NCBI GenBank assembly: GCA_963815195.1
Contig: CAWFGE010000010.1
Coordinates: 288,001 to 352,000 of the forward strand
DNA: 64,000 bases
Source: an uncultured Planctomycetaceae bacterium
Lineage (GTDB): Bacteria > Planctomycetota > Planctomycetia > Planctomycetales > Planctomycetaceae
Direction of reading: 5' to 3'
A model generated the notes under the pieces. That model had not been told where the DNA came from. It saw only the letters and a list, made by a program, of their open reading frames with translations, and did not search any database. Positions within the stretch are counted from its first letter, which is position 1, and the number at the start of each line of letters is the position of its first letter. Below, one piece after another: positions 15,460 through 42,793 of this stretch. The position numbers and the translations under genes were made by a program.

Positions 15460-17926
15460 TCAGTGTCCTTCCGGGGAACGTGCAGAATTTTTTGAGCCGG
15501 GGAGGAGTTGGCGGTGGCCGCGCCGACCGATTTCCAGGACCTGACGCTGAAGCCGTTCCGCCTCGTCTTTTTGGCCCAGTTTTTCAAGCACGCCCGCCAG
15601 GTCATCCATGGTTTTGAGCGCGTCGGGATGTGCCTCGCCCGACACACGCTGCTGAATTTCCAAGATCCTGCGAAGGATGTCCGCTGCCTGTTGGTAACGC
15701 ATTTGGTCGATGAGCACACTGGCCAGACTCTGCAGTGAGATCAATCGGGTCGGATGATCCTCTCCCAGGATGCTCTGGTCGATAGCGACCACTTGACGAA
15801 GGAGTTGTTCCGCCTCATCGTAACGCTGTTGGCCCTGGAGCGCGCGCACCACATTGAATGTGGTGCCCAGGGTCCATGGATGCTCTTTCCCGAACACGCG
15901 GCGGCAGGCGGCCAGCAGGTCTCGCTGAAGTTGTTCCGCTTCGCGGTAGCGTCTTTGGTGAAAAAGCGCGACCGCGAGATGGTGCCTGGTCATGAGTGAG
16001 TCTAAGTCCTCTTCACCCAGGGCACGGCTTTGCACTTCGAATGTCCGCCGGGCCAACTCTTCGGCGTCGATGAGACACCCCATATCACTCAGCGTCCAAG
16101 CCAGGTCCGAGGCGATCTTGAGTGTGACTCGGTGTTCCTTTCCGAGCTCGCGCCGGGCACGAATTAGCAGCGCTTCGAGCTTCTCCCTGGCCGGCTCGTG
16201 ATCGCCTCGCCTTTCGAGAATCCAGGCGGAGATCCGCTCCGCGTCGATGGTCGCGGCATCATTCTCACCCAGGTGTTTTTGCCTGAGTTCGACCGATCGG
16301 TTCGCATGCTCCAGCGCCTTTTCATAATTCCTCAGCGGCAGGTACGTCTTGGCGAGCGTCTCGCGAATCGCTGCCTCGACCAACGGCTGGTGCTTGAACC
16401 TCGTCTCGATGCTCTGCCCCGTTCGGTCCAGCACGTCTCGCAACTTGAGGCCCGGGTTCGCAGTGTTTTCAGGACTGGCCTGGTCCAACAGGTCGTTCAG
16501 AAAAGCGTTCACGGCCTGGGAAATCGCCGCCTCGTCGGCGGCGCGCCGTTCGGCCGATTGCGTCCGCTTCAATTCCTCGGTGACGCGGCGTTCGGCCTGT
16601 TGGACACGGCCGAGTTCCTGGGTCACTTGTATTTCGGCCCGCGTGGCCCGGATGGCCTGCCAGGTGGCCAGACCGGTGCCGATAGCCAGTGCAGCCAATA
16701 CGAGAACCGCGGTCGTCAGCCCTGTCTTGTTTCGCCGGGCGAGTTTCCGCAGGCGATACCACATCGACGGCGGGCAGGCTTCGACGGGTTCGTTTTCCAG
16801 GTGACGCCTTATGTCCTCTGCCATGGCGCATCGGCGATTCGTACCGCCGGTTGCGGTCTTTTTCCAATGCTCTCATCACGATCCAATCCAACTCGCACCG
16901 TAGGGAGTGGCTGAGTTTGCGGGGATCGATGCGGCGGCTGCCGGAGATCGTGCAGAGCAGTTCCACGTTCAACGTGCTGATCCGGGTGCTGGGGCGGGCC
17001 GGGTCCACTTCGCGGATCATCCGCCGGAACTCGTCGAAGCCGGCGGTCTTCAGAACCTCTTTATCGAACGGCGTCGTGCCCGTGAGGAGTTCGTAAAGCA
17101 AGACCCCCAGGGAATACACGTCGCTCCGCGTATCAATGTCCAACCCGCTGAATTGGGCCTGTTCCGGGGACATATACAGCGGCGTGCCGATCATCTGGCC
17201 ATAGGACGTGTAAACCGTTTTCTCAGTCAGTTTCACGCTTAAGGCTTTGGAGACGCCGAAGTCGATCACCTTCACCATCGGCTTGTCGTCATGCAGCGTG
17301 ACCATTACGTTCGAGGGTTTAATATCCCGGTGAATGATCCCTTTTTGATGGGCATGCTGGACGGCCCGGCAGACATCGATGAACAACTCCAGCCGCTCCC
17401 GCGTCGAGAGCTTCCGCTCATCGCAAAATGTCGTGATAAGCACGCCTTTGACGAGTTCCATCACGAAGTAGGGCCGGCCTTGCTCGGTCGTCCCCGCGTC
17501 CAGCACCTTGGCGATATTCGGGTGATCCATCAAAGCCAGGGATTGGCGCTCGGCTTCAAATCGGGCGATGACCTCCCGCGTGTCCATGCCGGGCTTGATG
17601 ATCTTGAGAGCCACCTTGCGGCGGACCGGCTGTTCCTGCTCCGCCACAAACACCAACCCAAACCCGCCTTCGCCAATCTGCTCCCGGAGTTGATAAGGCC
17701 CGATCTGGGTTCCCGGTTTTTCCAGGATCGCCGGCAAATTGAATGTCGCCACGATCGCGGGGTCTTCCAAAAAGGAAGCGGGGTCTTCGTCCGCGGCGAG
17801 CAAGGCCTCGACGCGGTTCAACAATTCCTGATCCTCCCCGCACGCGTCGCGGAGGTAAACTTGACGCTCCGCGAAGGAGGCTTTCTCGCGGGCTGCGTAA
17901 AAGACAGATTCCTCTCGGTCGCTCAT
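15460..17926 (-). CDS. Hanks-type Ser/Thr kinase with a TM helix and C-terminal TPR repeats; frameshift near 16830
   Basis: GEGGFG, VALK, HRDIKPSN, DFG, GTPLYMSPEQ; the second frame resumes AEDIRRHL and carries 'LG.EHP.TL' TPRs. Confidence 0.9.
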
Positions 17927-17986
17927 CAAGCGATCCCCGACACAGGGTGAAATCAGATGAAGTTGGGGAATTTCCCCCCCTCATGT

Positions 17987-18867: not shown

Positions 18868-19578
18868 ATGGGAGGCGGAGTGTCCGCGTATATTGCCCTT
18901 TGCGATGTGTATAAAACCTATGGAACCACCGTGAAGACCCATGCACTGCGGTCGGTTTCTTTGGACGTGAACCGGGGAGAGTTCGTGGTCATTTTAGGGC
19001 CGAGCGGTTCCGGCAAGACAACGCTCCTCAATATCTTGGGCGGATTGGACAGCGCGACCAGCGGGTCTGTGCAGGTCGGCGGGCTGGATTTGTCGAAGCT
19101 CACCGCTCGCGAGCTTTCCAAATATCGCCGGGAGACGGTGGGGTTCATTTTTCAGTTTTTCAATCTGGTCCCCAGTCTGACGGCTCGCGAGAACGTGGAG
19201 TTTGCCGCGGATTTGCATCCCGGTTCCATGAGCGTGGACGAAACCTTGGCTGCCGTGGGCCTGGCGGAATTTGCGGACCGGTTTCCCTCGGAATTGTCCG
19301 GGGGGCAACAGCAGCGGGTGGCCATCGCCCGGGCGCTGGCGAAGTCCCCGCAGATGTTGTTGTGCGATGAGCCGACCGGTTCGGTCGATCAGGAAACCGG
19401 AAAGCAAATCGTGGGACTGTTGCAACGGGCGGCTGAGGGCGGCTGCACACTGCTGGTCGTGACCCACAACAATGCCTTGGCGCATGCCGCGGACCGGGTG
19501 ATTCACCTCAAGGACGGGCAAATTCAATCCGACGAGCGAAATGCCGCCCCGCTTCCCGCCCTGGACTTGGTTTGGTAG
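18868..19578 (+). CDS. ABC transporter ATP-binding protein (LolD/MacB type)
   Basis: [26 protein letters not shown]. Confidence 0.95.
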
Positions 19579-19587
19579 GGATCGTCC

Positions 19588-22038
19588 ATGCTCGCACGCA
19601 AATTGAGACGGGAGCTTTGGCAGCAGCGCGGCCACAATCTGGCGATCGCCATGGCGATGGCTTTGGCCGTGTGTTGTTTCGTGGCCAGCCGAAATAGTTA
19701 TCTCGATCTCAAGGGCAGCTACGCCCAGATTCAAAATGATCTGAATCTCGCCGACTGGACAATCGAGGTCGCTCATCTTTACGCCGCCGATGTGGAACGG
19801 ATCCGGCAGGTCGAGGGCGTCAAAGCGGCGGAGGATCGGATCGTCGTCAGTCTGCCGGTCGTGTTGCCCGAGGGGCGGTTGGGTCCCGATGTCAGGGGCC
19901 GCGTGCGTTTGGAAGGCCGGTTTATCACGCTGCCTTCGGGGCATCGGCCGCGGTTGAACCAACTGCTCATCGAGGACGGGGCCTATCCCGAAGCGCCCAA
20001 CGAGGTGCTCGTCGAAAAACATTTTGCGGAATTCCACGGCATCGAACCGTCCGCAACTTTGGAACTGGAAATCCCCGGCGCGCCGCGGAACGTGACTTTG
20101 AAGGTCTCGGGGATCGTGGTGAGCGCGGAATATCTGTGGGTCAGCCGGAACGAATACGACATCATGCCTTCGCCCGCAAGCTTCGGCGTGTTTTGGATCG
20201 ACCGGGAAGCGCTGCGGCGGTATCGGTTGCGGCCGCAAGTCGCGGCCGGGCTTCGGGCGATGCTGGGCGGCGGCGGAGGCCAAGGTGGAGCGGGTTCCGA
20301 TGTCCGGGTCGAATCCAGCAAACAGATCCTGATCCAAGTGGCGAAAGGCGACAATCCGAAGGCGGTGTTGGAACGCGTCGTCGGCGTCTTGGGGAAAGAA
20401 GATGTCGTCTCCACGATGGCTCGCGACGAGTCGCCCCAAACGGAAATCCTCCGCACGGACATGCAAAGTCTGCACGGGTTTGCGATTTTCTTTCCGACTC
20501 TGTTTTTGGTCGTGGGTGGCTCCGTGGTCGCCGTGTCTCTTTCCCGCGTGATCGACGCCCAACGCACAATAATCGGCACAATGCTGGCCTTCGGCGTCGA
20601 ACGGTCCCGGATTTGGCGGCATTATCTCGCATTTGCTTGGGTGATCGGCCTGTTGGGGGCTGTGCTTGGCATCGGGATCGGCATGGAGGTCGGAAGGGTT
20701 TTGACCCGCGCTTACGCCCAGGTCGCGGGCGTGCCCCGCCTGACGTTTGCGTTTCACGAACGGGTCCTCATTTTGGGCGGGTTGTTTGGATTGTTCACCG
20801 CGACCGTTGCGGGGCTTCTCCCGGCGTACCGGGCCGCCGCGATCTATCCGGCCCAGGCCATGCGGCCGCCTGCACCAGCGATGAATGCCGGGGTCTCTCT
20901 GCTCCGGCGGCTAAGCGGGCGATTGCCGTTGCCTGTGCGGTTGGCGATTCGCAACCTGATGCGCCGGCCGGGCCGGAGTTTGGCCTCTGTGGGGGGCGTG
21001 GCGGCGGCGCTGGTTCTTGTCCTGGCCGGGTCCGGCGTTGTCGATGGATTGAATCGCACCACCGAAGTCCTTCTCCAAAAATCCTGGCGGTACGATCTGC
21101 GTGTCGACTTTTTTACTCCGGAGCCCAAACAAACGTTGTTTGGTCTCCTCCATCGGACCGAGGACATTGAAACCTGGGAGAGTGCTTTAACCGTCCCGGC
21201 CCAAATTCAAGCCGGCGACATACGCCTGGACACGGTTGTCGAAGGCATTTCTCCGGAGAGCGAACTGCTCCAGCCGGCAAATATGGAAGGCCAGATCGTC
21301 CGGCCCGGTGAGGGCGTGGTTCTGCCCGCGGCGTTGGCCCGTCAACTGGATGTCCACGCAGGCGACACCGTGCAACTCCAAGCGCTCCCGCAAGGAGCCG
21401 AGATCGAAGTGCCCATCGAACACATCACCGAAGGGCTGGGGGCGGAGGTTTTTATGCGGCTGGACAAAGCCCAAACCACGTTTGCCGAGCCGGGGCTGGT
21501 GAATTGTCTGCTCATCAAGACCAAAGTGCCGAGTTGGAAGTTTCGCCAATCGCTCCAAACGCTGCCCCAAGTGGCCCGGCTGCAAGACATGCAGGATCTC
21601 CGCGAGCGGATCGCACGGATCATGGATTTCAACTACCTGCTGGTCACGTCCATGCTGCTGTTCAGCGCCATTCTGGGCAGCGCCATTCTTTTCACCACGA
21701 GCACGTTGAATATCTGGGAACGGCGGCGCGAATTGGCCACGATGCGGGCCCTCGGGTTGCCGTTTCGGCAAATCGTGGGCATGGTCACGCTCGAGCATTG
21801 CCTCCTGGGTCTCGTGGGCGTGGCGGTGGGAATTCCCTTCGGCATTTGGGCGATGCGCGGGGCTTTAAATCTCTACGAATGCAGCTTTCTCACGCTGCCC
21901 TTGATCCTCAAACCGGGCACGTTCGCGCTGGCGATTGCGAACATTTTCCTCGTGCTCCTGTTGGCCCAGTGGCCGGTTTTGCGCTCGATCGCGCATCTCA
22001 ATCTGGCGGATGTTGTCCGAGAACGCCGCGAAGGCTGA
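19588..22038 (+). CDS. ABC transporter permease (tandem FtsX/MacB type)
   Basis: Two periplasmic-domain plus 4-TM units; 'ERRRELATMRALG'. Confidence 0.9.
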   Translation: MLARKLRRELWQQRGHNLAIAMAMALAVCCFVASRNSYLDLKGSYAQIQNDLNLADWTIEVAHLYAADVERIRQVEGVKAAEDRIVVSLPVVLPEGRLGPDVRGRVRLEGRFITLPSGHRPRLNQLLIEDGAYPEAPNEVLVEKHFAEFHGIEPSATLELEIPGAPRNVTLKVSGIVVSAEYLWVSRNEYDIMPSPASFGVFWIDREALRRYRLRPQVAAGLRAMLGGGGGQGGAGSDVRVESSKQILIQVAKGDNPKAVLERVVGVLGKEDVVSTMARDESPQTEILRTDMQSLHGFAIFFPTLFLVVGGSVVAVSLSRVIDAQRTIIGTMLAFGVERSRIWRHYLAFAWVIGLLGAVLGIGIGMEVGRVLTRAYAQVAGVPRLTFAFHERVLILGGLFGLFTATVAGLLPAYRAAAIYPAQAMRPPAPAMNAGVSLLRRLSGRLPLPVRLAIRNLMRRPGRSLASVGGVAAALVLVLAGSGVVDGLNRTTEVLLQKSWRYDLRVDFFTPEPKQTLFGLLHRTEDIETWESALTVPAQIQAGDIRLDTVVEGISPESELLQPANMEGQIVRPGEGVVLPAALARQLDVHAGDTVQLQALPQGAEIEVPIEHITEGLGAEVFMRLDKAQTTFAEPGLVNCLLIKTKVPSWKFRQSLQTLPQVARLQDMQDLRERIARIMDFNYLLVTSMLLFSAILGSAILFTTSTLNIWERRRELATMRALGLPFRQIVGMVTLEHCLLGLVGVAVGIPFGIWAMRGALNLYECSFLTLPLILKPGTFALAIANIFLVLLLAQWPVLRSIAHLNLADVVRERREG

Positions 22039-22318: not shown

Positions 22319-25300
22319 ATGAATGAATCCCTTTCCTCTGAAATCGCGGGCAGTTCGTCGATTGTCGAACTATTAATCCGGCGAGCGCTCGCTCATCCCC
22401 AGCGGACTTTTTGCACCTATTCCGACGAGGGCACGCCGCCTCGGCTTCGATGGACCTATGCCGATCTGGACGCCCAGGCCCGGCGGATTGGGAGTTGGCT
22501 GCAGTCGCGGAACCTGGCGGGCCAACCGGTGCTGTTGGCATTTCCTCCAGGGCTGGACTTTGTCACGGCATTTTTTGGGTGCCTGTATGCGGGGGCCATT
22601 GCCGTTCCCAGTCCGCCGCCCCGGCGAAACCCCAAGTCCGACCGGTTTTTCAGCATCTACAAGGACTGCAAAGCCGAGTGCGTTTTCACCACGGCCGACG
22701 TGCTGGACCGCGTGCAAACTTACGCGAAGACCCACCCCGCGCTCGCCACGGTTCCCTGGCAGGTGTTGGAGGGAATTGGAGCGGATTCCGCCGACGCCTG
22801 GCAAGACCCCGGCGTCTCGCTTAGTACGATCGCCTTTTTGCAATACACGTCGGGTTCGACCGGCGATCCCAAAGGCGTCGTGGTGGACCACGGCAATTTG
22901 CTTCACAATCAAAAGCTCATCACCGGCGCGTTCGGGCAGACCGAGGAGATGGTGACCATCGGCTGGCTGCCGATGCACCACGATATGGGCCTTGTCGGCA
23001 CGCTGCTGCACCCGCTGTCTCTGGGCGGCACGCTGCATCTGATGTCGCCCATGGGATTTCTGCAAAACCCCATTCGCTGGTTGAATTTGATTTCCGAACT
23101 TCGCGGCACGATCACCACCGCCCCGAATTTCGCCTACGAATTGTGCATCACCCGCACCACGCCCGAAGAACGGACCCCCCTGGACTTGTCCTGTCTCCAA
23201 ACGGCCTTGAATGGAGCCGAACCCGTCCGGGCGAGCACCCTCCGCCGATTCTCCGAAGTCTTTGCGCCCCAAGGCTTCCGTCCGTCGATCTTCTGCCCCT
23301 GCTACGGCATGGCGGAAACGACCTTGCTCATCAGCGGCGTGCACCGTGCGGAAAACCCGCTCGAGCACATCATCGAACGCCAGGCGGCCAACCCGGCGTC
23401 CAACGGCGATGCGGATCACGCTCTAAACATCTCCCCGGATTGCCCGGCCGAATTGGTCCACTGTGGAACGCCCCACCCGGATTTGGATGTTCGCATCGTG
23501 GATCCCGAAACCTTCACCGAACGCCCGGATGGGGAGATCGGCGAAATTTGGGTTTCCGGCCCGAGCGTGACCCGAGGCTATTGGCACCGCCCGGAACTCA
23601 CCAAAGACACATTCCAGGCGGAAATTCATCGCGACCGCTCCACGAACGGCAATGGAACATCTTCCAAGTATTTCCGCACGGGCGATTTGGGACTCAAACA
23701 AGCCGGCCGCCTCTATATCGCCGGGCGATTCAAGGATGTGATCATCCTCAACGGCGTGAATTACTATCCTCACGACCTGGAAGCCTCCGCCGTCGCCTGC
23801 GACGACCGGTTGGTCGAAGGCCGGGGCGTGGCGTTCGGCACGGAGATTGAAGGCGGCGAAGAAGTCGTGCTCGTCTTGGAGGTCAAACGCGAGCACGTCC
23901 GCCAACTGGATGAGGACATCCTCACCAACATCCTCACCGAAATTCAACAGACTTGGGAAATCTCTCCCGCAGCTGTGCTGCTCGTGCGGCCGGGTTCCGT
24001 TCCCGTGACGACCAGTGGCAAGGTGCAACGGCAACTTGTCAAACAGCAATTTCTCGCGGGCGAACTTTCCCCGATCACCCAATGGAACCGCCCCCGTGCC
24101 TGCCGGACTTCTGGGAGGGAATCCGCCGCAGAACCGATGGAACCTCGCACGCAAACGTATTCCGAACGGGAATCGCTCAGGGATCTCGAGCGGTGGATGG
24201 CCGGCCGGTTGTCGCAAATCCTGGAAGTGCCGCGAGATGCGATCGACATCCGCGAGCCGTTCGCGCGGTATGGCTTCAAATCGCAGCACGCCGTGCAGTT
24301 TTGCGCCGACTTGGAGCAACGCGTCCACCGCCGAATCGAGCCGGCCTTGGCTTATGATTATCCCAACATCGCCGAACTGGCGAAATTCCTGCATTCCGGA
24401 AACGACCAACCCCGGCTTCAAAATGGCCGGGCTGCCCATCGCCGGAAAGACCGGCAGGAACCGATCGCGATCATCGGCATCGGTTGCCGATTTCCCGGTG
24501 CGAACAATCCCGAGGAATTTTGGGAACTGCTGCGAAGCGGGCAATCGGCCCTCAGGCCTTACCCGCGGGAACGGTGGGGCGAGTGGCAACAGCAACTCGC
24601 CGAGTCCGCCAGCCCCGGGCACCCGCTGCCGCCCCTCGGCGGGTTTTTGGACCATGCCGAGGACTTCGATCCGCTGTTTTTCGGAATCAGCCCCCGCGAA
24701 GTGGAAACGCTCGACCCCCAGCAGCGGCTCGTCCTAGAGGTCTGCTGGCAAGCGCTGGAGCACGCGGGCCTGCCTGCGGATCAACTTGCCAGGCAACAAA
24801 CGGGCGTGTTCCTTGGCGTGAGCGGGGCCGAGTATGCCCATCTTCAAGCCCGACTGAATTGCTCGCCCACCGGCTACAATGCGACCGGCAACTCTCTGGC
24901 GATGATCGCCAACCGCCTCTCTTACACGCTGGATTTGCACGGGCCAAGCCTGGCGTTCGACACCGCCTGCTCGTCCTCCCTGGTTGCGGTGCACGCGGCC
25001 TGCGAAAGCCTCAAACGCGGCGAATGCGAAGTTGCAATCTGCGGCGGAGTGAGCCTCATCACTTCTCCCGCCGTAACCGCCTCGCTCAACCAGGCGGGGA
25101 TGCTCTCTCCCACGGGAGCCGCCGCCGCTTTCACCCAAGACGTCGATGGCTACGTTCGCGGCGAAGGTTGTGGAATCGTCATCGCCAAACGCCTCAGCCG
25201 GGCCGTCGCGGATCACGATCGCATCATCGCCGTCGTCGCGGGGAGCGCGATCAACCACGACGGCCGCAGCAATGGCCTGACCGCCCCCAACGGCCGCGCC

Positions 25301-28300
25301 CAGCAGAGCGTCCTTCAGCAGGCTCTCGCAAACGCGGACTGTTCCCCCGGCCAAATCGACTACCTCGAAGCCCACGGCACGGGCACGGTGTTGGGGGATC
25401 AGATCGAGGTCAACGCCCTTCGCCGCGTGTTCTGGAGCGAAACGGATCCGGAAAAACCGCTGCGGATCGGTTCGGTGAAATCGAACATCGGCCACCTGGA
25501 GGCCGCCGCCGGAATTGCCGGCTTCATCAAAGTCTGCCTGTCCCTTCAGCACGAAGAATTGCCCAAGCATGTCTGCCACCAACCGCTCAACGAGCCACTG
25601 CTTTCCGGCTCGAATTTGCAGGTCGTCCAAGACGCCGCCCTCTGGCCAAGAAGCGAACAACCCCGGCACGCCGGCGTGAGTTCTTTCGGATTCGGCGGCA
25701 CAAACGCCCACGTGGTCCTCAAAGAAGCCCCAGGGCCAAAGCCGGCCACTCCCTTTGAACCGCCGACGCACATCCTCGTGTTGTCGGCGAAAACGGAATC
25801 GGCCCTGCATGCGCTCGCCCAAAACTGGCAGCAGCAATTTCCGGAAGGACCGCTTCCCGCGATCTGTTACACCGCCAATGCGGGCCGCGCACGGTTTCCG
25901 CATCGACTGGCCCTCGTCGCAGACCGCCGGGAAGATTTTCAAAACCAACTCGGCGACTTTCTTCGAAAAGTCACAGCCGGAAAACGGGTGGTCGAACGAG
26001 ACGAAATCCGAACCTCGCATCGCCTGGTCGTTCGGCGGAGAATTTCCTCTCCCCGGAAGCATCGGCAAAGATCTCTATGACCACATTCCCGGCTTTCGCA
26101 GTCTTTTCGATCAGCTGGATGATCGATTCCAAAAACACGACCTGCCTTCTCTGAAATCCGTCCTCTGGAACGGCGCGTCCTCAAATAATGAAGAGCAAAT
26201 GCTTAATCGTTTGGTCGGTTGGCAGTTGGCCTATGGCGGGTTTCTCAAAACGCTCGGTATTCCCTGCGATGGGATCCGCGCGGACGGTGCGGGAGAACTC
26301 GCCGCCGCCGTTTATTCCGGCCTCGTGGAAATTGACGCGATTCTCGATCGGCTGGCAAAAAAAACCATCGGCGAATCCGTCGCCCTCCCGACACCTGCGG
26401 AATTGCAGGCGGACATAGAACTGAAACTATCTCCAGCCAAGAGCACGGCTGAGCGGGCTCGCACAAGCGGCAGCCCGATCACACAACTCGGGTGGCCCGG
26501 ACAGTCGGGCGGGGAATACCGATCCTTACTCACACTCCTCGCCCGCCTCTACGTCCTCGGCGTGCATATCGATTGGCGGCCGATCTATCCGCCGGATCTG
26601 GAAAAAGTTTCCGTACCCTATTCTCCCTTCGAGCGCAAGCCCTATTGGATTTCCCGCCAACTCCTAGAGACGCCATCGAACATTCAAACCGCCGCATGGC
26701 TGCACCCGCTCTTGCATCGGCATTATGATCTTTCAGGCGCGGAACAGGTTTTTGAAACCGACCTCTCGAAAGTGGAATTCTTGAAGGACCATCGAATCCA
26801 AGACGCCGCGGTGTTTCCGCTGGCCGGCTATCTGGAGATGGCCGCCTCCGCCGCCCGGATGATCAATGGCACCTTGGGAACGGTGGACGATCTCGAGATC
26901 ACATCGCCGATTCAGATCACCGGCGGTGAAGCGTGCATCGTGCAACTCGTTCTCCGCCCCGAAGGAGCCGGATGGTCCGCGACATTCAACCGCAAAACCC
27001 CTCAAGGCTGGCAACCGCACGCGGCATGCCAAATCCTGCCGAGCGAGAACCACAGCGACACGAGCGGTGCCGTGGCTTGGCCGGAGGTTCTGAATCAGCC
27101 CTCCGCCGCCGCGGCCATTCCGGAGTATTACGATCGATTGCGGCAGGCGGGTTTGGACTATGGCCCGGCGTTCCAAACGCTCCAGCTTTTGCACGCGGAT
27201 GCTGGAGCGGCCTGGGCGGTGATCGCCGCGGAACAGGCTGGTGTTTCTCGTGAATTCGGCATTCATCCCGCCCGGCTCGATGGCTGCTTTCAAGCGATCG
27301 CCTCTGCATTACCGCCGGAAATCACAACGACTTTAGTGCCCACACATATCAAGCGCTTCTGCATAGATCGCAAGCTTGAGGGAGGGGAACCGCTCTATTG
27401 CCACGTCCATCATCTTCAAAACGAGGGCGCAGGCTTTGTCGTGGATCTCGATATATTCGATAAACACCAAACCCGCGTCGCCCAAATTGAGCAACTCAAG
27501 CTTCAACCGCTCGAACGTTCCCGCTTAGGTTATTATGTCGCCGATTGGCCTGCGCAAATCCGATCGAAGGATTTCCCGCCCACCTATATAGAGCCGCCGG
27601 CGACACTCTCTGCGCATTTAAGATCCCGGTATGCACAAGACTATAATGTCTCTCAAGTCGAAGCCCACTCGGCGCTGCTGGACCAATTGGAAGAAGCGAC
27701 CGCCGGCTGTGCTTTGGATGTCTTGTCTCAATTAGGTTTAGATCTCCGCCCCGGCCGCGAATTTCCATTAGCAGATGCCGTTCAATGTTGCCGAGTGGTG
27801 GAAACGCAAGAAGCCTTGTTTACAAGGCTGTTAAACATGCTTGTGGAAGATGGGCATCTGAACCTTAACAAAGGCCTGTATTCGGTTGAGAAGCCGATCG
27901 CCCGCTCTTGGATGTCCGCCGTTCCGGAATCTTCGCACGTCGAATTTGCCTTGTTCGAGCGCTGCCTGGAACACTTGCCGGACGTTATGCAGGGAAGGTG
28001 CGATCCGCTGGAGATTCTGTTCCCGACCGATGAAGCCGCCTCCGCTTTGCAGCTTTATACCGAGTCGGTCGGCGCCAAGGCCTTAAATTACTTAACGGCC
28101 GAAGTCGTTGCTCAGATCCAAAGCCAATTGCCTGAGGGGCGGGGATTAAAGATTTTGGAAGTGGGAGCCGGCACCGGAGCGACGACCGAAGCCGTGCTGA
28201 AACGAACTCGTTCCCGGCGTCTCGCCTATGCCTTCACCGATATTTCCTCGCATTTCTTCGCCGCCGCGAAACAACAGTTCTCGCAATATCCCATCAGCAC

Positions 28301-31300
28301 CTACAAGACTCTCGACATCGAATCCGCTCCCGCGGACCAGGGCTTTGAACGGGAGTCGTTCAATATCATCATTGCCGCCAACGTGCTGCATGCCACGTCC
28401 GATCTGCAGCGAAGCCTCCGGCACGTGCGCGAATTGCTCAAGCCGGAAGGCGCTTTACTGCTTGTCGAGGGAACCCGGCGGGTGCGTTGGCTGGATTTCG
28501 TGTTTGGGATGACTCCCGGATGGTGGGCCTTCCGCGATTATGATCTGCGTCCCGATTACCCCTTGATTTCGCCAGAACAATGGAACGAGGTGCTCCATCA
28601 AGCCGGCTTCGGGCTTGTCGAAACATTTAACCCGCATGGTCGAAACTGCAAATTGGAACCCGCCAATTCGCTGATCGTCGCCAAGGCGGACGCCGTTCTC
28701 CAACCGCAGGACGATTCGCATACCTGGCTCATCATCGGCAACGATTCCAAGGCCCAGCGGCTCTATGAAAGCTTAATCGCTCGCAATCAGAACAGCCGGC
28801 TCATTCCTTGGCCCGCGGATCACCGCAATCCGGAAGGGAACGAACTCCTGATTACTGCGGATGACTTGACCAAACCTCGCCTCAATATCCTCGCGTTCTG
28901 GCCGCACACGTCAGACGATACAGAGAACGCCCCCGATGTCGCCCTTCAAGGTTGCGAAGCCGTCCTAAACCTTGCCCAAACGATAGTACGGCAAACATCC
29001 GAGCACGCATTCAGGCCGCGGCTCGTTTTTCTCACCGAAGGAGTTCAAGCCGTCGATGACCGGATTCAGGCCGCGTCGCCGGCCGACGCGTCCTTGCTGG
29101 GATTTGTACGGTCGCTTTCTCTTGAGAAACCGGATTGGACAATTCAAGCAATCGATCTGGATCGGGAATCCGCTGACACCTCGCTTGCCGCCTGCATTGA
29201 TGAACTGCTCTTGGGGTCTTCCGAATCCGAAGTTGCGTTTCGCGACGGAGAACGCCGCGTGCGGCGGTTGGCCGAACTCGATCCGGCCCATCTGCCAGCC
29301 ACATCAATAAAGGTCTTAACAATTTCCCGCCGCGGAGCAATGGACGGCCTTGAACTCTCCACCCTTCCTGCGCGGACCCTAAAGCCTGATGAGCTCCTGA
29401 TAGATGTCGCGGCGAGCGGATTGAACTTTCGCGATGTCCTCAACGTGCTTGGGATTTATCCCGGGCGACCTCCGTTGGGAGCGGAGTGTGCCGGCACGGT
29501 CCGCGAGCGAGGCAGTGCGGTGACGGACTTCCAAATCGGCGACCGCGTCGTGGTCGTGGCACCGAATACATGCTGCAATCAGTTGTTCGTACCGGCGGAA
29601 TTGGCCGCGCCTATCCCTTCGTTCCTCTCGCTTACCGAGGCCGCGACAATCCCCATCGCGTTTCTGACCGCATGGTACGCCCTCGAACACGAGGCGGCGC
29701 TTCGCTCAGGCCAGCGGGTGCTGATTCATTCCGCCACGGGCGGCGTAGGCCATGCGGCCGTGCAAATGGCAAGCGCGATTGGAGCGGAGATCTATGCCAC
29801 CGCGAGCGCCGCCAAACTCGACTATCTTCGCACGAGCCTCGCGCCGGATCACATCTATAACTCCCGCAGCCCCGGCTTTGCCGAGGCTATCCTCAACGAC
29901 ACGAAGCAGCAAGGCGTTGACGTTCTATTAAACACATTAGGCGACGAGTTTGTCGATGAGAACCTAAGGGCCTTGGCGGCGAACGGCCTCTATGTGGACC
30001 TTAGCAAACCGCAAGCGGGCATCCGCGCATATTGCCGGGCAGCGTCCCGATGTGAAATACATGGCGATCGATCTGGTGGAGTATCTCGAAGCGCATCCTC
30101 AACGGGTCCGCGCGCATTTGCAGGAGTTGCTTTGTCGCTTCGAGGCCGGCGAGCTTTCGCCGCTTCCGAAAGTCGAGTATCCCCTCGATTCGGCCGTGGA
30201 TGCCTTTCGGCTTCTGCAATCGGCGAACCATATCGGCAAAGTCTTACTGACACCGAACTCGCCTGGAGCCGCCGACCCCTCGAAATCTTCTCGCCCACCG
30301 ACACCGAACCAACATCGGATTCGTTCCGATTCCGCCTATGTGATCAGTGGAGGAATGGGCGGATTGGGTTTGCAGGTAGCGGAATACTTAGCGCTGCAGG
30401 GAGCAACTCGCGTGGTCTTACTGGGCCGGCACGAACCGGGACTTGCCCAACAGCAATGCATTCGGCAGATCGAAGCCTTGAATTGTACGGTGTCGACAAT
30501 GCGCTGTGATGTGTCTCGCTTGGAAGAGGTGTCGCATACGCTTGATCGCATTCGCAAATCGGTCGGGCCGATTGCCGGGGTGATTCACTCGGCAGGAGTT
30601 CTCAGCGACAAGGCGATCATGAATCAATCAACTGGGACATTCCAACAAGTGTTTGATCCCAAAGTTCGCGGCGCATGGAATTTGCACTTGGCGACGCGCA
30701 ATGATTCGCTCGATGAGTTTGTGCTTTTTTCTTCGATTGCGGGATATTTGGGTTCTCCGGGGCAAGTGAATCATGCGGCGGCCAATAGCTTTTTGGATGC
30801 ATTGTCCGCTTACAGGCGTCAGCAAAACCTGCCGGCGTTGAGCATCGTGTGGGGGCCTTGGTCGGATGTTGGAGCGGCGATCCAAAACGGGAGAATGCGT
30901 CATCCGCACGGGGCCGCATTTGAATTGATCGCCCCGGCGGAAGGCATAAAAGGCTTCCACAACGCGCTGCAGCATAGCGGCTACAGCAGCATGGCTCTGA
31001 TGAAGTTCGACGCCGCTCGATTGCCGGAAGATTTGCGAAACCGCTCGATTTTTCAGTTGCTGCTCGACGGGCCGACTGCCAAGCCGAAGCCGGAACTCTC
31101 CATTAAACTTGAACGATTGAAACACATGACATCCGGTGAAGCGTCGCGGACGTTACTGGCGTATCTCAAGCAGAAGATTGTGGAGATCCTCTGCTTGGAC
31201 GGGCCGGAGCAAGTGCCGGCCGATATGACCCTTTTCGACCTCGGCCTCGACTCACTGACAACGGTGGAGCTCAAGGGAACCTTGGAAGCCAGTCTAGGAA

Positions 31301-31560
31301 TCCCGCTACAGTCTGCAATCTTTTTTGATTATCCGACCTTGAGCGGATTGTCGTCTTACTTGTTGACCTTAATCCAACAGGATGCGTCACGAGCGGAAGC
31401 CGCATCACCGAATATCTTGTCAACAAGGGAAACTGAGCCTGCACTCGAGGGGGAAGTGACGAGTGATCTGGAGATTAATACCGAGGATGAGGAGACGCGG
31501 GACAAACTGATGGAGATTGCGCAGGAACTTCAAAAGTGGGATGATATGTATAGTGGCTAG
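22319..31560 (+). CDS. Type I PKS: FAAL-ACP-KS-AT(degenerate)-DH-cMT-ER-KR-ACP; split by frameshifts near 25965 and 30025
   Basis: YTSGSTGDPKG; GFKS ACP; DTACSSS/HGTGT/NIGH; DH HRIQDAAVFP and DGCFQ; LEVGAGTG; HSATGGVG; GGMGGLG; GLDS. Domains continue across three ORFs. Confidence 0.88.
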
Positions 31561-34500
31561 TGAATACTCCAATCGATCGACACCTCGGGAACTCAACAAA
31601 GTTCTGGACCAGGCCCTTTCCCAATTGAGGAACATTCGCGAGAGTCGCACCGAACCGATTGCAATTGTGGGCGTAGGCTGCCGGTTTCCCGGGGCCTCGA
31701 GTCCCGCGGCGTTTTGGGAATTGCTCAACAACGGCCTCTGCGAGATTCGAGACACCCCGCAAGAACGTTGGACGGGCATCCCTCTTCAAAATAGCACCTT
31801 GAAGGGCGGCATCACGGCGCACCGCGGATCCTATTTGCAGGACGTGGACCAGTTTGACGCGTCGTTTTTTAATCTCTCTCGCCGCGAAGCGAACCTGCTC
31901 GATCCGCAACAGAGGCTTTTGCTCGAAGTCGCTTGGGAAACTTTGGAGAACGCGGGCATCAATCCGGAAAAGCTCAAAGGGAGCCAAACGGGCGTCTATG
32001 TCGGGATTTGCACGAATGATTATTTGCATTTATTCACCCGGCGAAAGCACTTGCCGATCGATGCGTGGCTGAGCACCGGCAATGCGCACGGTTCGGCGGC
32101 GGGACGGTTGAGCTATTTTTTTGATTGGAGGGGGCCATGCCTCGCCGTCGATACCGCTTGCTCATCATCTTTGGTGGCCGTGCATCTTGCCGTTCAAGCG
32201 ATTCGCAATGACGAGTGTCAAACAGCTCTCGCCTGCGGCGTGAATTTGATGCTCGCGCCGGATCTCAGTATCTCGCTGTCGCAGGCGGGGATGTTGTCTC
32301 CGGAAGGGCTTTGCAAGACCTTCAGCGAGTCGGCCGATGGATTTGTGCGCGGGGAAGGCTGCGGAGCGGTGCTCCTCAAGCGCCTCTCTCAAGCCCGCGC
32401 GGATGGTGATCCGATCTTGTGTGTTATTCGGGGTTCCGCGAGTAATCAAGACGGGCGGAGCATCGGCCTGACCGCCCCGAATGGACTGGCTCAACAAGCC
32501 GTCATTCGGAACGCGCTCGCGAATGCCCGAGTTGCCCCGGAAGACGTTTCCTATATCGAAGCGCACGGCACGGGCACGCCGCTTGGAGATCCAGTGGAGA
32601 TGAGTGCCCTAGAGGCGGTCTTTAAGCAGAACCGTTCGGAGGATCGACCTCTGACGGTCGGTTCGGTGAAAACAAACCTCGGCCACCTGGAAGGAGCGGC
32701 CGGCATCGCCGGCGTCATAAAAACCGCCTTGGCATTGTCCTATAAAGTCATCCCGCCCCATTTGCACTATAAACAACCCAGTTCCAAAATCCATTGGGCT
32801 TGGCCCGTGAAAATCCCCACAGAAGCGAGATCCTGGGATATGCCCGAGCCACGCCCGCGCATCGCCGGCGTCAGTTCCTTTGGGTTTGGCGGAACCAATG
32901 CCCATGTTGTCCTTGCAGAAGCACCCCGCGACGAATCGACGATGCACGCGGATCGCCTGGATCGCCTCCCCGTGCCGCTGCTTAAAATCTCCGCGAAGTC
33001 GCCCGCCGCGGTGCGGGATTTGGCGAATTCCTCTATTCAGCAACTCAGGGATTTCAACCTGGAGCCAACCTGTTATACCTCGTGCGTCGGGCGGAGCGAT
33101 TTTGATTATCGGCTTGTCGCCTTTGCGACGAATGCGGAAGCGATGCAGAATTCGCTTGCGGAATGGGTAAGCAAATCCCCGGAACAAAGCGCCCAGCAAA
33201 GCCTCCACTCTGGGAAGGTTCAAGAGGACTTTCACACGGTTTGGCTCTTCTCCGATCGGATGACATGGAGTCCGGGATTCGGTCGAAGCCTGTATGAATC
33301 CCACGCGTTGTTCCGAAGACTTTGGGATCAGATTGACGAGATTCTCGGATCCATTTGGCCCCGCAATCTGAAAGATTTGCTTTGGAAAGACGCGCCTTTG
33401 CTACAACAGGACCGCTCGATTGCGCTTGTTGCGATTCAGTATCTCTATAGCCAGTTGTGGTTGGAGTGGGGGTTTGCGCCTCGCGAAGTCCGGGGCACAG
33501 GCTTCGGGGAACTCGCCGCGGGGTGCGTGGCAGGGCTTTTGGAATTTAAAGACGCGTTGCAGTTGGCAGTCGATCCACAGGGTGCGGAGGGACTCACGAT
33601 AAAGTCGCCGCGCTATGTTTATCGTCCTTCTCGCATCGCTTCGGAAGCGTCTCATCGGGTGTCGGATCGGGAATACTGGCGTCAAGCCACGATGCCTCAA
33701 AGAACGGGTTCTCCTTTCCCACTCCCCGCTTTTTCAGAGCGTGCCGCCGAAATTCGGTTTGGCGATGAATTGCATGCGAACTCAACCAACGGCCGGCAAA
33801 CCCGAACCGCATCACACGTTGAAGGGATTGCTCCCCGAGATGAGCACGGATGGGATGAATTGTTGAAGGCTCTCGCTCGACTTTATGTCTCGGGGGCGAG
33901 TATCAATTGGAATGCGGTGTTTCCCACACCGGTTCCCAAAGTTGTGTTGCCCAACTATCCGTTTCAGCGAAAGCGCTACTGGCTGCCGGACGACTTAGTT
34001 GAAGATCGCGCTCGGCAAGCGGACAACTCCGTTTCTCGTCCGCATCCGTTTCTCGGAAGGGAGATCGCTGGTTCCCAGGGACAACAGATATTCGAAATGG
34101 ATCTTAATCACTTCTCCTATTTGCAAGGCCACAAGCTTCGCGACGTTTGTCTTTGCCCGCTGACAGCTTATTTGGAAATGGCGTTGGCGGGGGCAATCCG
34201 AATCGATCCAGGGGAATGCACTGGCTTTTGCGTGTCGAATCTTGCCGTCAGCCAACCTCTTTTCTGGCAAGCGGGATCGCCAAGTCCTCTGCGGATGACG
34301 ATCACCCCAAATCCCGATCGGATGGATTGCCGATTTGAAGCCAAAGTGGAGCAGGAATGGCGTCGATGCGCCACATGCACCATTGAGCCGGCCAGTGACA
34401 AAGCGGAACCCGTCGAAGCTTCGCCGGCATTGGGCGGGACGATTCAGGATGTGGATGCGCATTACGAACGCTGTAAGACGGCGGGCCTTGTTTATAGCGG

Positions 34501-35242
34501 CGAATTCCGTTGTTTGGATTCCCTGTCGCTCAAGGGGGCGGGGCGATCCGGCGCGGAGGCGTGGGGCAGCGTGCGGCTTCCAAAGACTGCGGAATCCGGT
34601 TATCACTTCCACCCTGCGCTGCTCGATGGCTGTCTGCAGGTCACGATGGTCTGTCTTGACGAACTCGAAGACAAGGAGTGGATCCCGGCCGGCATCGAGC
34701 AATACTTGTTTTATCGCCCGCCCACATCATGCAATGTGACTTCCTTCGTGAAGAAAGTTTATCAAGCCGCGGAAGATCGATTGCTGATCGACCTCGACAT
34801 CATCGATGAGGAGGAGAAGCTCGCCGCGGGGGTCTTGGGATTGACGTTTCGGAAGTCCCCGCGAAGCCCCGCAGGTCTTTTGAGGTCCCAGGCGAAGAAG
34901 GCCGATCCGCTCGTCAGGAACATCTTGGATGCAGCGGATGAAGAGGTTTCTGCGCGGATTGGAGAGTATGTCCGGTCCCGATTGGCAGCTGTCCTGGAAC
35001 TTGCGGAAAGCGAAGTCGAGCTTTCGCGATCGTTGATCGATATGGGCATGGATTCCTTAATGGCCATCGAGTTGAGAAATGATCTGCAAGCGGATCTCGG
35101 GATTGACTTTTCTATGGAGGAACTCCTCGATGTGTTGACGGCGAATGACCTGATCGACCGGTTGAACCAGTCGCTTGGAGACCGCTCGAATCAAGATCCC
35201 GGAGATGCTGCCTCCGCGGAATGGGTCGAGGGAGTCCTCTGA
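31553..35242 (+). CDS. Type I PKS module: docking-KS-AT(degenerate)-DH-ACP-docking
   Basis: GTG start overlapping the upstream stop; KS C/H/H intact; GTGFG in place of GHSxG; HKLRDVCLCP and DGCLQ; GMDS; ends WVEGVL. Confidence 0.9.
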   Translation: MASEYSNRSTPRELNKVLDQALSQLRNIRESRTEPIAIVGVGCRFPGASSPAAFWELLNNGLCEIRDTPQERWTGIPLQNSTLKGGITAHRGSYLQDVDQFDASFFNLSRREANLLDPQQRLLLEVAWETLENAGINPEKLKGSQTGVYVGICTNDYLHLFTRRKHLPIDAWLSTGNAHGSAAGRLSYFFDWRGPCLAVDTACSSSLVAVHLAVQAIRNDECQTALACGVNLMLAPDLSISLSQAGMLSPEGLCKTFSESADGFVRGEGCGAVLLKRLSQARADGDPILCVIRGSASNQDGRSIGLTAPNGLAQQAVIRNALANARVAPEDVSYIEAHGTGTPLGDPVEMSALEAVFKQNRSEDRPLTVGSVKTNLGHLEGAAGIAGVIKTALALSYKVIPPHLHYKQPSSKIHWAWPVKIPTEARSWDMPEPRPRIAGVSSFGFGGTNAHVVLAEAPRDESTMHADRLDRLPVPLLKISAKSPAAVRDLANSSIQQLRDFNLEPTCYTSCVGRSDFDYRLVAFATNAEAMQNSLAEWVSKSPEQSAQQSLHSGKVQEDFHTVWLFSDRMTWSPGFGRSLYESHALFRRLWDQIDEILGSIWPRNLKDLLWKDAPLLQQDRSIALVAIQYLYSQLWLEWGFAPREVRGTGFGELAAGCVAGLLEFKDALQLAVDPQGAEGLTIKSPRYVYRPSRIASEASHRVSDREYWRQATMPQRTGSPFPLPAFSERAAEIRFGDELHANSTNGRQTRTASHVEGIAPRDEHGWDELLKALARLYVSGASINWNAVFPTPVPKVVLPNYPFQRKRYWLPDDLVEDRARQADNSVSRPHPFLGREIAGSQGQQIFEMDLNHFSYLQGHKLRDVCLCPLTAYLEMALAGAIRIDPGECTGFCVSNLAVSQPLFWQAGSPSPLRMTITPNPDRMDCRFEAKVEQEWRRCATCTIEPASDKAEPVEASPALGGTIQDVDAHYERCKTAGLVYSGEFRCLDSLSLKGAGRSGAEAWGSVRLPKTAESGYHFHPALLDGCLQVTMVCLDELEDKEWIPAGIEQYLFYRPPTSCNVTSFVKKVYQAAEDRLLIDLDIIDEEEKLAAGVLGLTFRKSPRSPAGLLRSQAKKADPLVRNILDAADEEVSARIGEYVRSRLAAVLELAESEVELSRSLIDMGMDSLMAIELRNDLQADLGIDFSMEELLDVLTANDLIDRLNQSLGDRSNQDPGDAASAEWVEGVL

Positions 35243-40462: not shown

Positions 40463-40659
40463 CGCATCGCTCCTGTTCGGGGTTGTTCCATAAAAAACGC
40501 CGGCTTACGCCCCCGCTCGCCTGGAACCTGAAACTCCCAGAATGACGCATCTTGCCGAAATTCGCAACGGATCACGCGGTGGGGATGACGCGCGCGGGGG
40601 CGGTCGTTACCATCAACGCCTACGGACAAACACCGGATTCTTTTGAGAGAACGAAGTCT

Positions 40660-42793
40660 ATGACGGATCAAACCGCAACCCTGCCTCCGGAACTTGCGAA
40701 TAATCCCCTGTTGGTCACCGAAGGACTTCCCCGTTACGACCAGACCCTACCCGAACATGTTTTGCCCGCGGCTCAATATGTGCTCGCCGAGGCCGAGCAG
40801 AAACTGAACGCGCTGGAACAGGAAATCCGGCCGACCTGGGACGGGGTGGTGGTTCCGCTGGAGGAAAACGGTCAAAGGTTTCAGTGGGCGTGGAGTCCGG
40901 TGGGACATTTGCACGGCGTGAAGAACTCGCCGGAACTCCGCGAGGTTTACGAAAAGGCCCGGCCCAGCTTCGTCGAATACGGTTTGCGGGTCAGCCAAAG
41001 CGAGCCGGTGTACCGGGCGCTCAAAGGCATTCGCGAGGGGGACGAATGGGAAACGCTCGACGAAGCCCAACGCCGAATCGTGACGACGCATCTCCGCGAC
41101 ATGGAACTTTCGGGCATCGGCCTGGAAGGCGAGAAGCGGAAGCGGTTTAATGAGATCGTCAACGAACTCTCCAAGCTGGCGACCGATTTTTCCAACCACG
41201 TTTTGGATGCGACGAAAGCGTTCTCGCTGGTGCTGACGGAACCGGGGGACGTGGAAGGTCTGCCGCCGAGTTTGCTGGCTCTCGCGGCCCAATCGTACAA
41301 CCAGGCTTCCGACGTGCCCGAAGGCGAACCGCCCCGAAGCGCCTCGCCGGACAAAGGCCCCTGGCGGTTCACGCTCGATGTGCCGAGCTTTCTGCCGTTT
41401 ATGAAGCACGGCCGCAAGCGGGAGCTGCGCGAGAAAATGTACCGGGCCTACGTCACGCGGGCCTCGCAAGGTGAATGGGACAACACGCGCCTTATCGAAC
41501 GCATCTTGAAACTCCGCCAAGAGGAAGCCCACCTTTTGGGATATCGCACCTACGCGGAAGTCAGTCTGCTCCAGAAGATGGCTCCGAACGTGGCCGCGGT
41601 GGAGCAAATGTTTCAGACTCTCCGCGATGCCGCGTGGAAACCGGCGAAGCACGACCTGGCGCACCTGAAAGAACTGGCCGAGTCTTCGGGCGTGAGCGAA
41701 CCGCTCATGCATTGGGATATTCCCTTCTGGTCGGAACGCCTGCGGGAAAAGCGGTTCGACTTTACCGATGAAGAACTCCGGCCGTATTTTCCCCTCGAAC
41801 GGGTGATGAACGGGTTGTTCGATCTGGTGGAGCGGTTGTTTGCCATCCAGGTCAAGTCGGCGGACGGCGAAGCCCCGGTTTGGCACCCGGATGTGCGGTT
41901 CTTCAAGATTCACGACGCCGACGGCACGCACATTGCTTCGTTTTATATCGATCCCTACTCCCGGCCGGAGAACAAACAAGGCGGAGCGTGGATGGCGACT
42001 TGCATGAACCGCCGGCGGAATCCCGACGGCAGTTTGCAGTTGCCTGTGGCGCATTTGATCTTGAACTCCACGCCGCCGGTGGGCGAGCATCCGTCGCTGA
42101 TGACATTCCGCGAAGTCGAGACGCTGTTTCACGAGTTCGGGCATGGCCTGCAACACATGCTCACGCGGGTGGATTACACCGATGCCGCGGGCATCAACGG
42201 CATTGAATGGGACGCGGTGGAACTCCCCAGCCAGTTCATGGAGAACTGGTGCTACCACAAACCGACACTTCTGGGGATGACGGCTCATTACCAAACCGGC
42301 GAGCCGCTGCCCGGGCCGCTGTTTGAAAAGCTCCGCGAAGCCCGCACGTTTCAATCCGGCATGCAGACGCTCAGGCAGTTGAACTTCGGGATGACGGACA
42401 TGGCGCTGCATCACGAATACGATCCGGACGGCTGCGAAAGTCCGCTGGACGTGGCCCGGGGGATTGCGAAGCAAACCTCGCTCCTGGAGCCGCTTCCCGA
42501 AGATCGCACGCTGTGCGCAGTTTCAGCACATTTTTGCCGGCGGCTACGCGGCGGGGTATTATAGTTATAAGTGGGCGGAAGTGCTGAGCGCGGATGCCTT
42601 CAGCGCGTTTGAGGAAGCGGGCCTCGACGACGAGGCGGCCTTGGAATCAACCGGACACCGATTCCGCGACACGATCCTGGCATTGGGCGGCGGGCGTCAT
42701 CCGATGGAAGTGTTTAAAGACTTTCGCGGCCGGGAACCCAAACCGGACGCGCTCCTCCGCCACAGCGGATTGGTGCCGGAGAAATCTCAGTAA
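40660..42793 (+). CDS. prlC: Oligopeptidase A (M3 family); frameshift near 42515
   Basis: [23 protein letters not shown]; the C-terminal [18 protein letters not shown] lies in another frame. Confidence 0.9.

Follow-up and report, generated by a model that had tools for sequence, protein, structure and literature searches.

A two-module planctomycete polyketide synthase operon of cis-acyltransferase ancestry with graded loss of its acyltransferase domains

Polyketide synthases (PKSs) that are loaded by their host, and PKS modules with a dead acyltransferase (AT), are already known. We consider here a PKS operon of an uncultured Planctomycetaceae bacterium in which neither of two modules has a working AT; its PKS genes lie at 22319-35242 of the 64,000-nucleotide stretch of contig CAWFGE010000010.1 that was analysed (the window). 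The cyanobacterial proteins ClyE (chlorosphaerolactylate) and NocP (nocuolin) have the order ketosynthase (KS)-AT0-dehydratase (DH)-T, where AT0 lacks its Ser, and ClyE, without the KS His, is non-elongating according to the accessible part of their description (PMC7923214). MucE of the mutanocyclin cluster is an AT-less PKS that works in a host with no AT gene in the cluster, a host AT having been inferred in the portion of the report available (PMC6694145). Displacement of ATs from cis modules has been proposed for algae from KS trees, and the accessible part of the same source places bacterial cis- and trans-AT PKSs in distinct clades, read as independent origins (PMC4661987).

The genome holding the window (G000; 8.9 Mb, 94.6% complete, window on contig C10) carries two plus-strand genes there; those relatives of its proteins that bear a name come from Planctomycetes. 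PKS1 (22319-31560) runs fatty acyl-AMP ligase (FAAL)-acyl carrier protein (ACP)-KS-AT0-DH-C-methyltransferase (cMT)-enoyl reductase (ER)-ketoreductase (KR)-ACP, in three reading frames owing to two frameshifts; PKS2 (31541-35242) runs KS-AT0-DH-ACP and ends in a docking-like tail. PKS2 resembles ClyE and NocP as a protein of ~1250-1290 amino acids between a FAAL/ACP start and a nonribosomal peptide synthetase (NRPS), with an AT lacking Ser and a DH lacking a KR. As far as the accessible description of those proteins goes, it differs in its intact KS2 (EAHGTG and GH are retained in 11/11 operons) and in having orthologues with a live AT2, and the upstream reducing, methylating module is here AT-less as well. 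As with MucE, the PKS is AT-less and the NRPS-PKS cluster is small and devoid of an AT gene, but order and chemistry differ, and the available part of the MucE account mentions neither AT remnants nor a series of AT-bearing orthologues. The algal proposal differs, in its accessible part, in that the intermediates here are extant orthologues. Canonical trans-AT PKSs (PksJ/PksL) likewise have elongating modules without a working AT, whereas the KS domains of this operon fall outside the AT-less group, there is no dedicated AT gene and there are two modules only. CurL (PDB 4mz0), of the cyanobacterial cis-AT type, is similar to KS2-AT2 in fold and to KS2 in sequence; it has GQG, GHSVG and a small AT subdomain, whereas the window ATs have none of these. 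The operon would work like a trans-AT system, yet stands outside the canonical family in having no dedicated AT and cis-type KS domains.

We consider it probable that the two modules, having lost their own ATs, continue to elongate and receive malonyl in trans from FabD. A literature search, with subscription papers largely out of reach, returned no account of the operon or of a graded AT-loss series among orthologues. Extant orthologous modules with live, half-deleted and absent ATs provide a rare view of how AT-less assembly lines may arise, and they show which part of an AT is dispensable for retention of its module, which is useful for modules engineered to accept external ATs. Cultured species, among them Rosistilla spp. 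and Pirellulimonas nuda, carry the terminal KS-III (ketosynthase III) gene of the operon, and the transition is testable by a comparison of FabD loading between matched ACPs and KS domains. The series is also a warning against writing off dead-AT clusters as pseudogenes when no AT gene accompanies them.

Acyltransferase remnants beside intact ketosynthases

A preliminary description of this DNA, made from its letters, had noted two intact KS domains beside ATs that had lost the nucleophile and GQG motifs and were shortened, and position and alignment bear this out throughout. KS1 (24458-25732) and KS2 (31652-32926, invariant among orthologues) retain the Cys/His/His triad, with DTACSSS, EAHGTGT and GHLEAAAG at 24959, 25367 and 25490 in KS1 and at 32150, 32558 and 32681 in KS2. 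The AT1 remnant (26016-26630) reads ADGAG at 26280-26294 and the AT2 remnant (33230-33946) reads GTGFG at 33494-33508. Set against a live AT from this operon family, both remnants have Gly at the Ser position and E/R in place of the Gln of GQG, and each lacks the same 90-residue stretch, the catalytic His of the HAFH-type motif included (after 26366 and 33580). The window modules have no functional integrated AT with GQG, GHSxG and HAFH-type motifs, as is typical of trans-AT systems; their KS-linker-AT-post-AT-linker architecture and cis-type KS ancestry are those of cis-AT PKSs.

A Pfam search for AT domains gave no match in module 1 and matched module 2 over profile positions 1-114 of 319 only, below the cut-off. 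A structure model of KS2-AT2 from a 62-row alignment reached pLDDT 90 (34 only for a single-sequence fold), and its best fold match is the CurL KS-AT didomain (TM 0.86). The AT2 remnant is predicted to retain the large AT subdomain as a scaffold in this model, which leans on intact ATs within its alignment. The loss of AT1 is not an assembly artefact, since a short-read contig covering 26287-26783 crosses the deletion junction with 0 differences and 0 gaps; a second (26051-26293) has 1 difference elsewhere, with the codon at the AT1 Ser position 5 bases from the contig end. The AT2 motif and junction lie outside the coverage of the listed short-read pieces.

An intact orthologue of gene 1 (P0123, 3125 aa) reads ADHAG at AT1, G003 of the same genus has both PKS genes with AT motifs ADGAG and GQGLG, and the AT2 Ser is absent from 7/7 other close module-2 orthologues (P0002-P0006, P0008 and G003). 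Two further genomes of the genus, G001 (94% complete) and G002 (90% complete), yielded no orthologue of PKS1 or PKS2. The preliminary description saw parallel decay in the two remnants; both ATs are indeed dead, but two separate decays are uncertain. The deletion ends are the same and KS-AT-DH is frequently copied between modules (see below), so that one dead AT may have been copied from the other, and trees of the AT remnants and of the DH domains are poorly resolved on a shared versus separate origin.

Graded acyltransferase loss across the operon family

The second half of the pathway lies on contig C23 of G000 (83174-90879; L182, 3174-10879). It consists of a single-module NRPS with the structure TubC_N-condensation (C)-adenylation (A)-peptidyl carrier protein (PCP), whose C domain is the only one in G000, a 666-aa double ketosynthase III (KS-III), a 318-aa membrane-anchored gene and a short-chain dehydrogenase/reductase (SDR). 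In G003 the SDR gene, whose G000 orthologue (53%) is the one on C23, directly follows PKS2, and the same NRPS and KS-III lie on another contig; neither was found in G001 or G002. Copies of the 318-aa gene are found close to the operon in G003, G861, G819 and G862 and, in G390, close to a related locus.

With the KS-III didomain as query, the class gave 6 matching genomes (401 searched), the family 4 (398 searched) and another family 13 (216 searched); together with G003 these are 22 distinct genomes. PKS1, PKS2, NRPS and KS-III are contiguous in nine of the 22, with the SDR divergent upstream in 8/9; in five other genomes a single fused module carrying a live AT takes its place, and the last six have other layouts or no PKS within the fetched flank. 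The four-gene line with two PKS modules is thereby known from 11 planctomycete-class genomes. Searches of genome contigs with P0004, and of metagenomes with an AT0 alignment, returned generic PKSs only and no close orthologue; a profile search of representatives was dominated by multimodular PKSs and served as background only. Simpler relatives (L275-L280, L301, L302 and L304) consist of FAAL-ACP-KS-AT-cMT followed by C-A-PCP fused to the KS-III pair, and one in G390 reads FAAL-ACP-C-A-PCP-KS-III and lacks a PKS altogether. The KS-III pair serves as a terminal domain of general use.

AT loss in this family is graded, from live domains through Ser-less remnants lacking 90 residues to full deletion, and it recurs in separate branches. 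AT1 and AT2 are both live in G393, G861 and G819, live and dead respectively in G726, deleted and live in G182, both deleted in G862, G794, G709 and G846, and both remnants in G000 and G003; AT2 is dead or deleted in 7/11 and live in four. Five of these genomes (G726, G182, G794, G709 and G846) are single contigs. The Cys/His/His triad is kept in all 22 operon KS domains. From the end of the KS to the DH His, live modules span 481-507 residues (G819 gives 420 through an early motif match), remnant modules 388-459 (356 for window module 1) and modules with a deleted AT 179-216. At the operon loci with lost ATs, no dedicated AT gene lies alongside.

A 263-row KS tree, with groups defined by architecture and without curated references, unites 27 operon KS domains, including those of live-AT modules, in one clade (0.96), separate from the canonical AT-less group P0133/P0142/P0143/L034/L101. 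None is placed in a trans-AT KS clade, and the best PDB sequence matches of KS2 are 7zma first and CurL second (E 8.5e-145). The operon KS domains thus belong with cis-AT relatives and apart from canonical trans-AT ones. Of the independent cis-to-trans shift proposed at the outset, AT loss that is independent of classical trans-AT systems and has occurred several times within the operon is supported.

The operon tree was built on FAAL, cMT, ER, KR, C, A and KS-III from 13 rows, with G709, G739, G856 and P0123 excluded. It recovers (G000,G003)+(G861,G819), (G726,G862) and (G182,(G794,G846)) with SH-aLRT values of 97, 100 and 99, respectively, and requires 3 changes to the state with no live AT; a single clade of the rows in that state is rejected by the approximately unbiased (AU) test (p-AU 5.5e-6). 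Outgroup modules have live ATs, so that loss is the simpler direction. We judge the chances as evenly balanced that the operon turned from cis-AT to trans-AT three times, through Ser loss, excision of the ACP-binding subdomain and full deletion, with FabD loading each time, no dedicated AT, and adapted KS and ACP domains.

Several aspects of the trees and of the module sequences call for caution over so definite a history. The group for the AU test was defined by the trait, yet chosen after sight of a first tree, and inner support in a PKS1-only tree is weak. Unlike the operon tree, the KS2 tree unites G726 and G862 with the G000 lineage and P0006/P0008 (0.91). Two deaths of AT2 may then suffice, and losses leading to the no-AT state number two to three. 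In addition, the two modules of G393, G819 and G861 share ~3 kb of KS-AT-DH at 98% identity, and those of G182 share 0.9 kb at 92% (loci L271, L289, L287 and L274), through gene conversion in which module 2 apparently overwrites module 1. The live AT1 of G393, G819 and G861, as a 98% copy of module 2, could be a regain.

Malonyl supply and the candidate pathway

Searches for ATs found none in the window besides the remnants, in line with the preliminary description, which had envisaged loading by FabD. Of the five Pfam AT matches in G000, one is FabD (C21:131516-132478, in a plsX-fabD-acpP-fabF locus), three belong to large PKSs on C13 and the last is the remnant of AT2; tblastn of G000 with the live operon AT and FabD found no further AT, an extra AT-like match on C12 being spurious since it overlaps a helicase gene. 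G794, G709, G846, G862 and G182 gave 7, 6, 7, 4 and 2 matches, with FabD the only AT frame below 400 aa in each, and the matches of G003 are FabD and pieces of frameshifted PKSs. Neither at the loci nor genome-wide was a dedicated free AT or AT-ER gene found, FabD being the only small free-standing AT, in genomes that are 94.6% (G000), 85% (G003) and 99-100% (three relatives) complete. Since no free-standing AT other than FabD is shared by all six genomes without a live operon AT, loading by FabD is indicated by exclusion. The FabD motif reads GLSLG, not GHSxG, throughout the class (G000, G003, G794, G709, G846, G862, G182 and G001).

The modules might elongate with malonyl from another source, such as the AT of a pfa-like large PKS, self-malonylation of the ACPs or an unrecognised transferase, which we regard as unlikely. 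Live ATs reading GHSYG, GHSFG and GHSAG are encoded on C13 of G000, and large PKSs with live ATs are present in all no-AT genomes. Loading by the sister module is plausible in G182 and G726, which have one live AT each, and many fetched loci pair a dead-AT module with a live one: in this AT0-enriched sample, 59 of 951 KS modules have an intact triad and a short AT, usually beside a live AT. However, the ATs of the large PKSs are embedded in proteins of 1000-3700 aa and occur also in G001 and G002, which have no such pathway; a KS-less AT frame (~1150 aa) is not a separate frame in G862; and the tblastn search brought nothing further to light in G000.

The modules are under purifying selection, so elongation is likely to continue. 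For G794 versus G846, in which both ATs are deleted, dN/dS is 0.08 for KS1, 0.09 for cMT, 0.14 for ER, 0.12 for KR and 0.10 for KS2 (0.05-0.14 once FAAL, C and A are included). Each of the DH domains gives 0.23, and FabD 0.08. For G000 versus G003, where synonymous sites are near saturation and the ratios rough, it is 0.15 for KS1, 0.11 for KS2, 0.19 for cMT, <0.13 for KR and <0.14 for ER (0.11-0.19 across FAAL, KS and cMT), <0.22 and <0.27 for the remnants, and <0.19 and <0.30 for the DH domains. A pair with both ATs live gave 0.04-0.13 for unconverted domains. The cMT, KR, DH and ER domains of a PKS act on the beta-keto product of elongation, and the upkeep of the methyltransferase and reductases argues that module 1 still elongates.

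In the pathway suggested by these domains, the FAAL (22379-24076) would load a fatty acid onto the first ACP (24200-24391, GFKS motif), and the module ACPs (31162-31362, GLDSL; 34964-35164, GMDSL) would receive malonyl in trans, probably from the fatty-acid transacylase FabD. Module 1 would add one unit, methylate its alpha carbon through the cMT (28083-28634, GAGTG and ANVLH intact) and, if its KR works, reduce it fully with DH1 (26703-27521, His and Asp motifs intact) and the ER (29310-30249, spanning the second frameshift). The DH, cMT, ER and ACP motifs had been described as surviving and all prove intact. The KR (30334-30867), missing from the earlier domain list, has His at the catalytic Tyr position; this motif, GQxNHAAAN (30760-30786), occurs in 11/11 operon members (11 His against 437 Tyr among KR-type motifs of the fetched proteins), live-AT members included, so that the substitution predates AT loss. 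Module 2 would add a second unit and, having no KR, leave a beta-keto thioester, with no obvious substrate for DH2 (34043-34867, His and Asp motifs intact); this is the weakest step.

The tail of PKS2 (35216-35239), which ends WVEGVL, would then dock on the TubC_N domain of the NRPS on C23. Short tails of this kind bind beta-hairpin docking domains; those of the other operon members read (W/L)(V/I)EGA(I/L) in 10/10, the N-terminus of the NRPS matches the AerJ and TubC docking domains, and the PKS and NRPS genes are contiguous in nine other genomes, all of which makes the tail the likely partner of TubC_N. One amino acid, perhaps basic, would be added; the A-domain pocket, read by eye as D-P-E-D-I-G-A-I-T-K and conserved in the family, resembles basic-amino-acid codes. 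The fused KS-III pair, with Cys/His/Asn in its first half only, would release the chain by C-C bond formation, and the SDR would reduce the resulting ketone. This ending resembles the logic of lipstatin LstA/B/D/E and of OleA/OleD, in which a KS-III pair, an SDR resembling 3-beta-hydroxysteroid dehydrogenase and a single NRPS end a lipid pathway; here the pair is fused, follows a PCP and is fed by a FAAL-PKS. Matches of the KS-III pair to the OleA-type PRK09258 profile and of the SDR to that of OleD are weak, below the curated cut-offs, and no beta-lactone synthetase (OleC/LstC) is annotated among the neighbours, no genome-wide search having been made. Of the product proposed earlier, a methyl-branched elongated lipid from a FAAL-loaded fatty acid, the branch and the starter are kept in the present reading; rather than ending as a free lipid, the chain is most likely passed to the NRPS and the KS-III/SDR end, and a methyl-branched N-acyl-amino-acid lipid is the best reading of the domains.

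Some features sit uneasily with trans loading by FabD of two elongating modules. A free AT could be unassembled in G000 and G003, and ATs exist in large PKSs; one of them, reading GHSAG, is the N-terminal domain of a C13 frame that has no KS. Reduction may not occur with His in place of the KR Tyr, and the divergence of DH1 and DH2 (43-48% identity) equals that of the AT remnants (35-44%). DH2, without a KR partner, recalls non-elongating ClyE, with which PKS2 shares the layout KS-AT0-DH-T ahead of an NRPS in the accessible part of the description (PMC7923214). Module 2, or both modules, might accordingly be a non-elongating shuttle to the NRPS; AT2 is dead or deleted in most operons, as noted, and most of DH2 is lost in P0008. 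We hold such a shuttle to be unlikely, slightly more so than another malonyl source. ClyE, in the same partial view, lacks a KS His, whereas the KS2 triad is complete in 11/11 genomes; AT2 is live in four, among them G182, where it is the sole operon AT; and the conserved cMT, ER and KR leave module 1 unexplained. Confined to module 2, a shuttle is fairly likely and would not conflict with loading of module 1 in trans.

Reading frames and other loci

The remaining explanation, that the cluster is decaying or the sequence an assembly artefact, draws on three frameshifts (two within gene 1, the third within the NRPS), on breaks in G003 near both gene 1 sites and on the split of the pathway across two loci. 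It is very improbable and largely refuted. Frameshift 2 (30023-30024, plus strand) is an assembly error, since short-read contigs of two studies have two extra bases there. Frameshift 1 (approximately 25960-26025, plus strand), unbridged by the listed short-read contigs, is probably a long-read error. Frame changes also occur in unrelated genes (3 in ~26.7 kb over 28 genes; 4 in 33.8 kb with four pathway rows included), at a rate that predicts ~1 in 9.2 kb, and the essential fabF on C21 is broken by one as well. Orthologues of PKS1 are whole across the frameshift sites, as P0123 and the open reading frames of the single-contig genomes attest, and dN/dS far below 1, with purifying selection on KS, methyltransferase and reductases, speaks against decay. 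Programmed frameshifting, raised by the breaks in G003, is ruled out at site 2 by the short reads. A Ser/Thr kinase and oligopeptidase A (window 15460-17929 and 40552-42793) are also split by frameshifts which, like that in fabF, are typical of an unpolished long-read assembly.

An ABC ATPase and an FtsX-type permease (window 18868-22038) lie directly upstream of PKS1; they were dropped as candidate pathway genes, not being beside the G003 cluster. Among other loci, a cluster in G396 (L161 14272-19591 and L162 1-3655) encodes a FAAL, two desaturases, an ACP, KS-AT0-DH-ACP and a DarB/StlD ketosynthase but lacks a live AT, and so is a second AT-free case, unrelated to the present one. A different, widespread planctomycete PKS (L169, L172, L173, L175 and L176) has, after KS-AT-DH-KR, a KS without its Cys (DTASSS) and with a dead AT; an adenylation-ACP gene lies beside it. 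Finally, in L054 three reducing modules in a row combine an intact KS with a dead or absent AT, possibly a larger example of a cis-to-trans shift.

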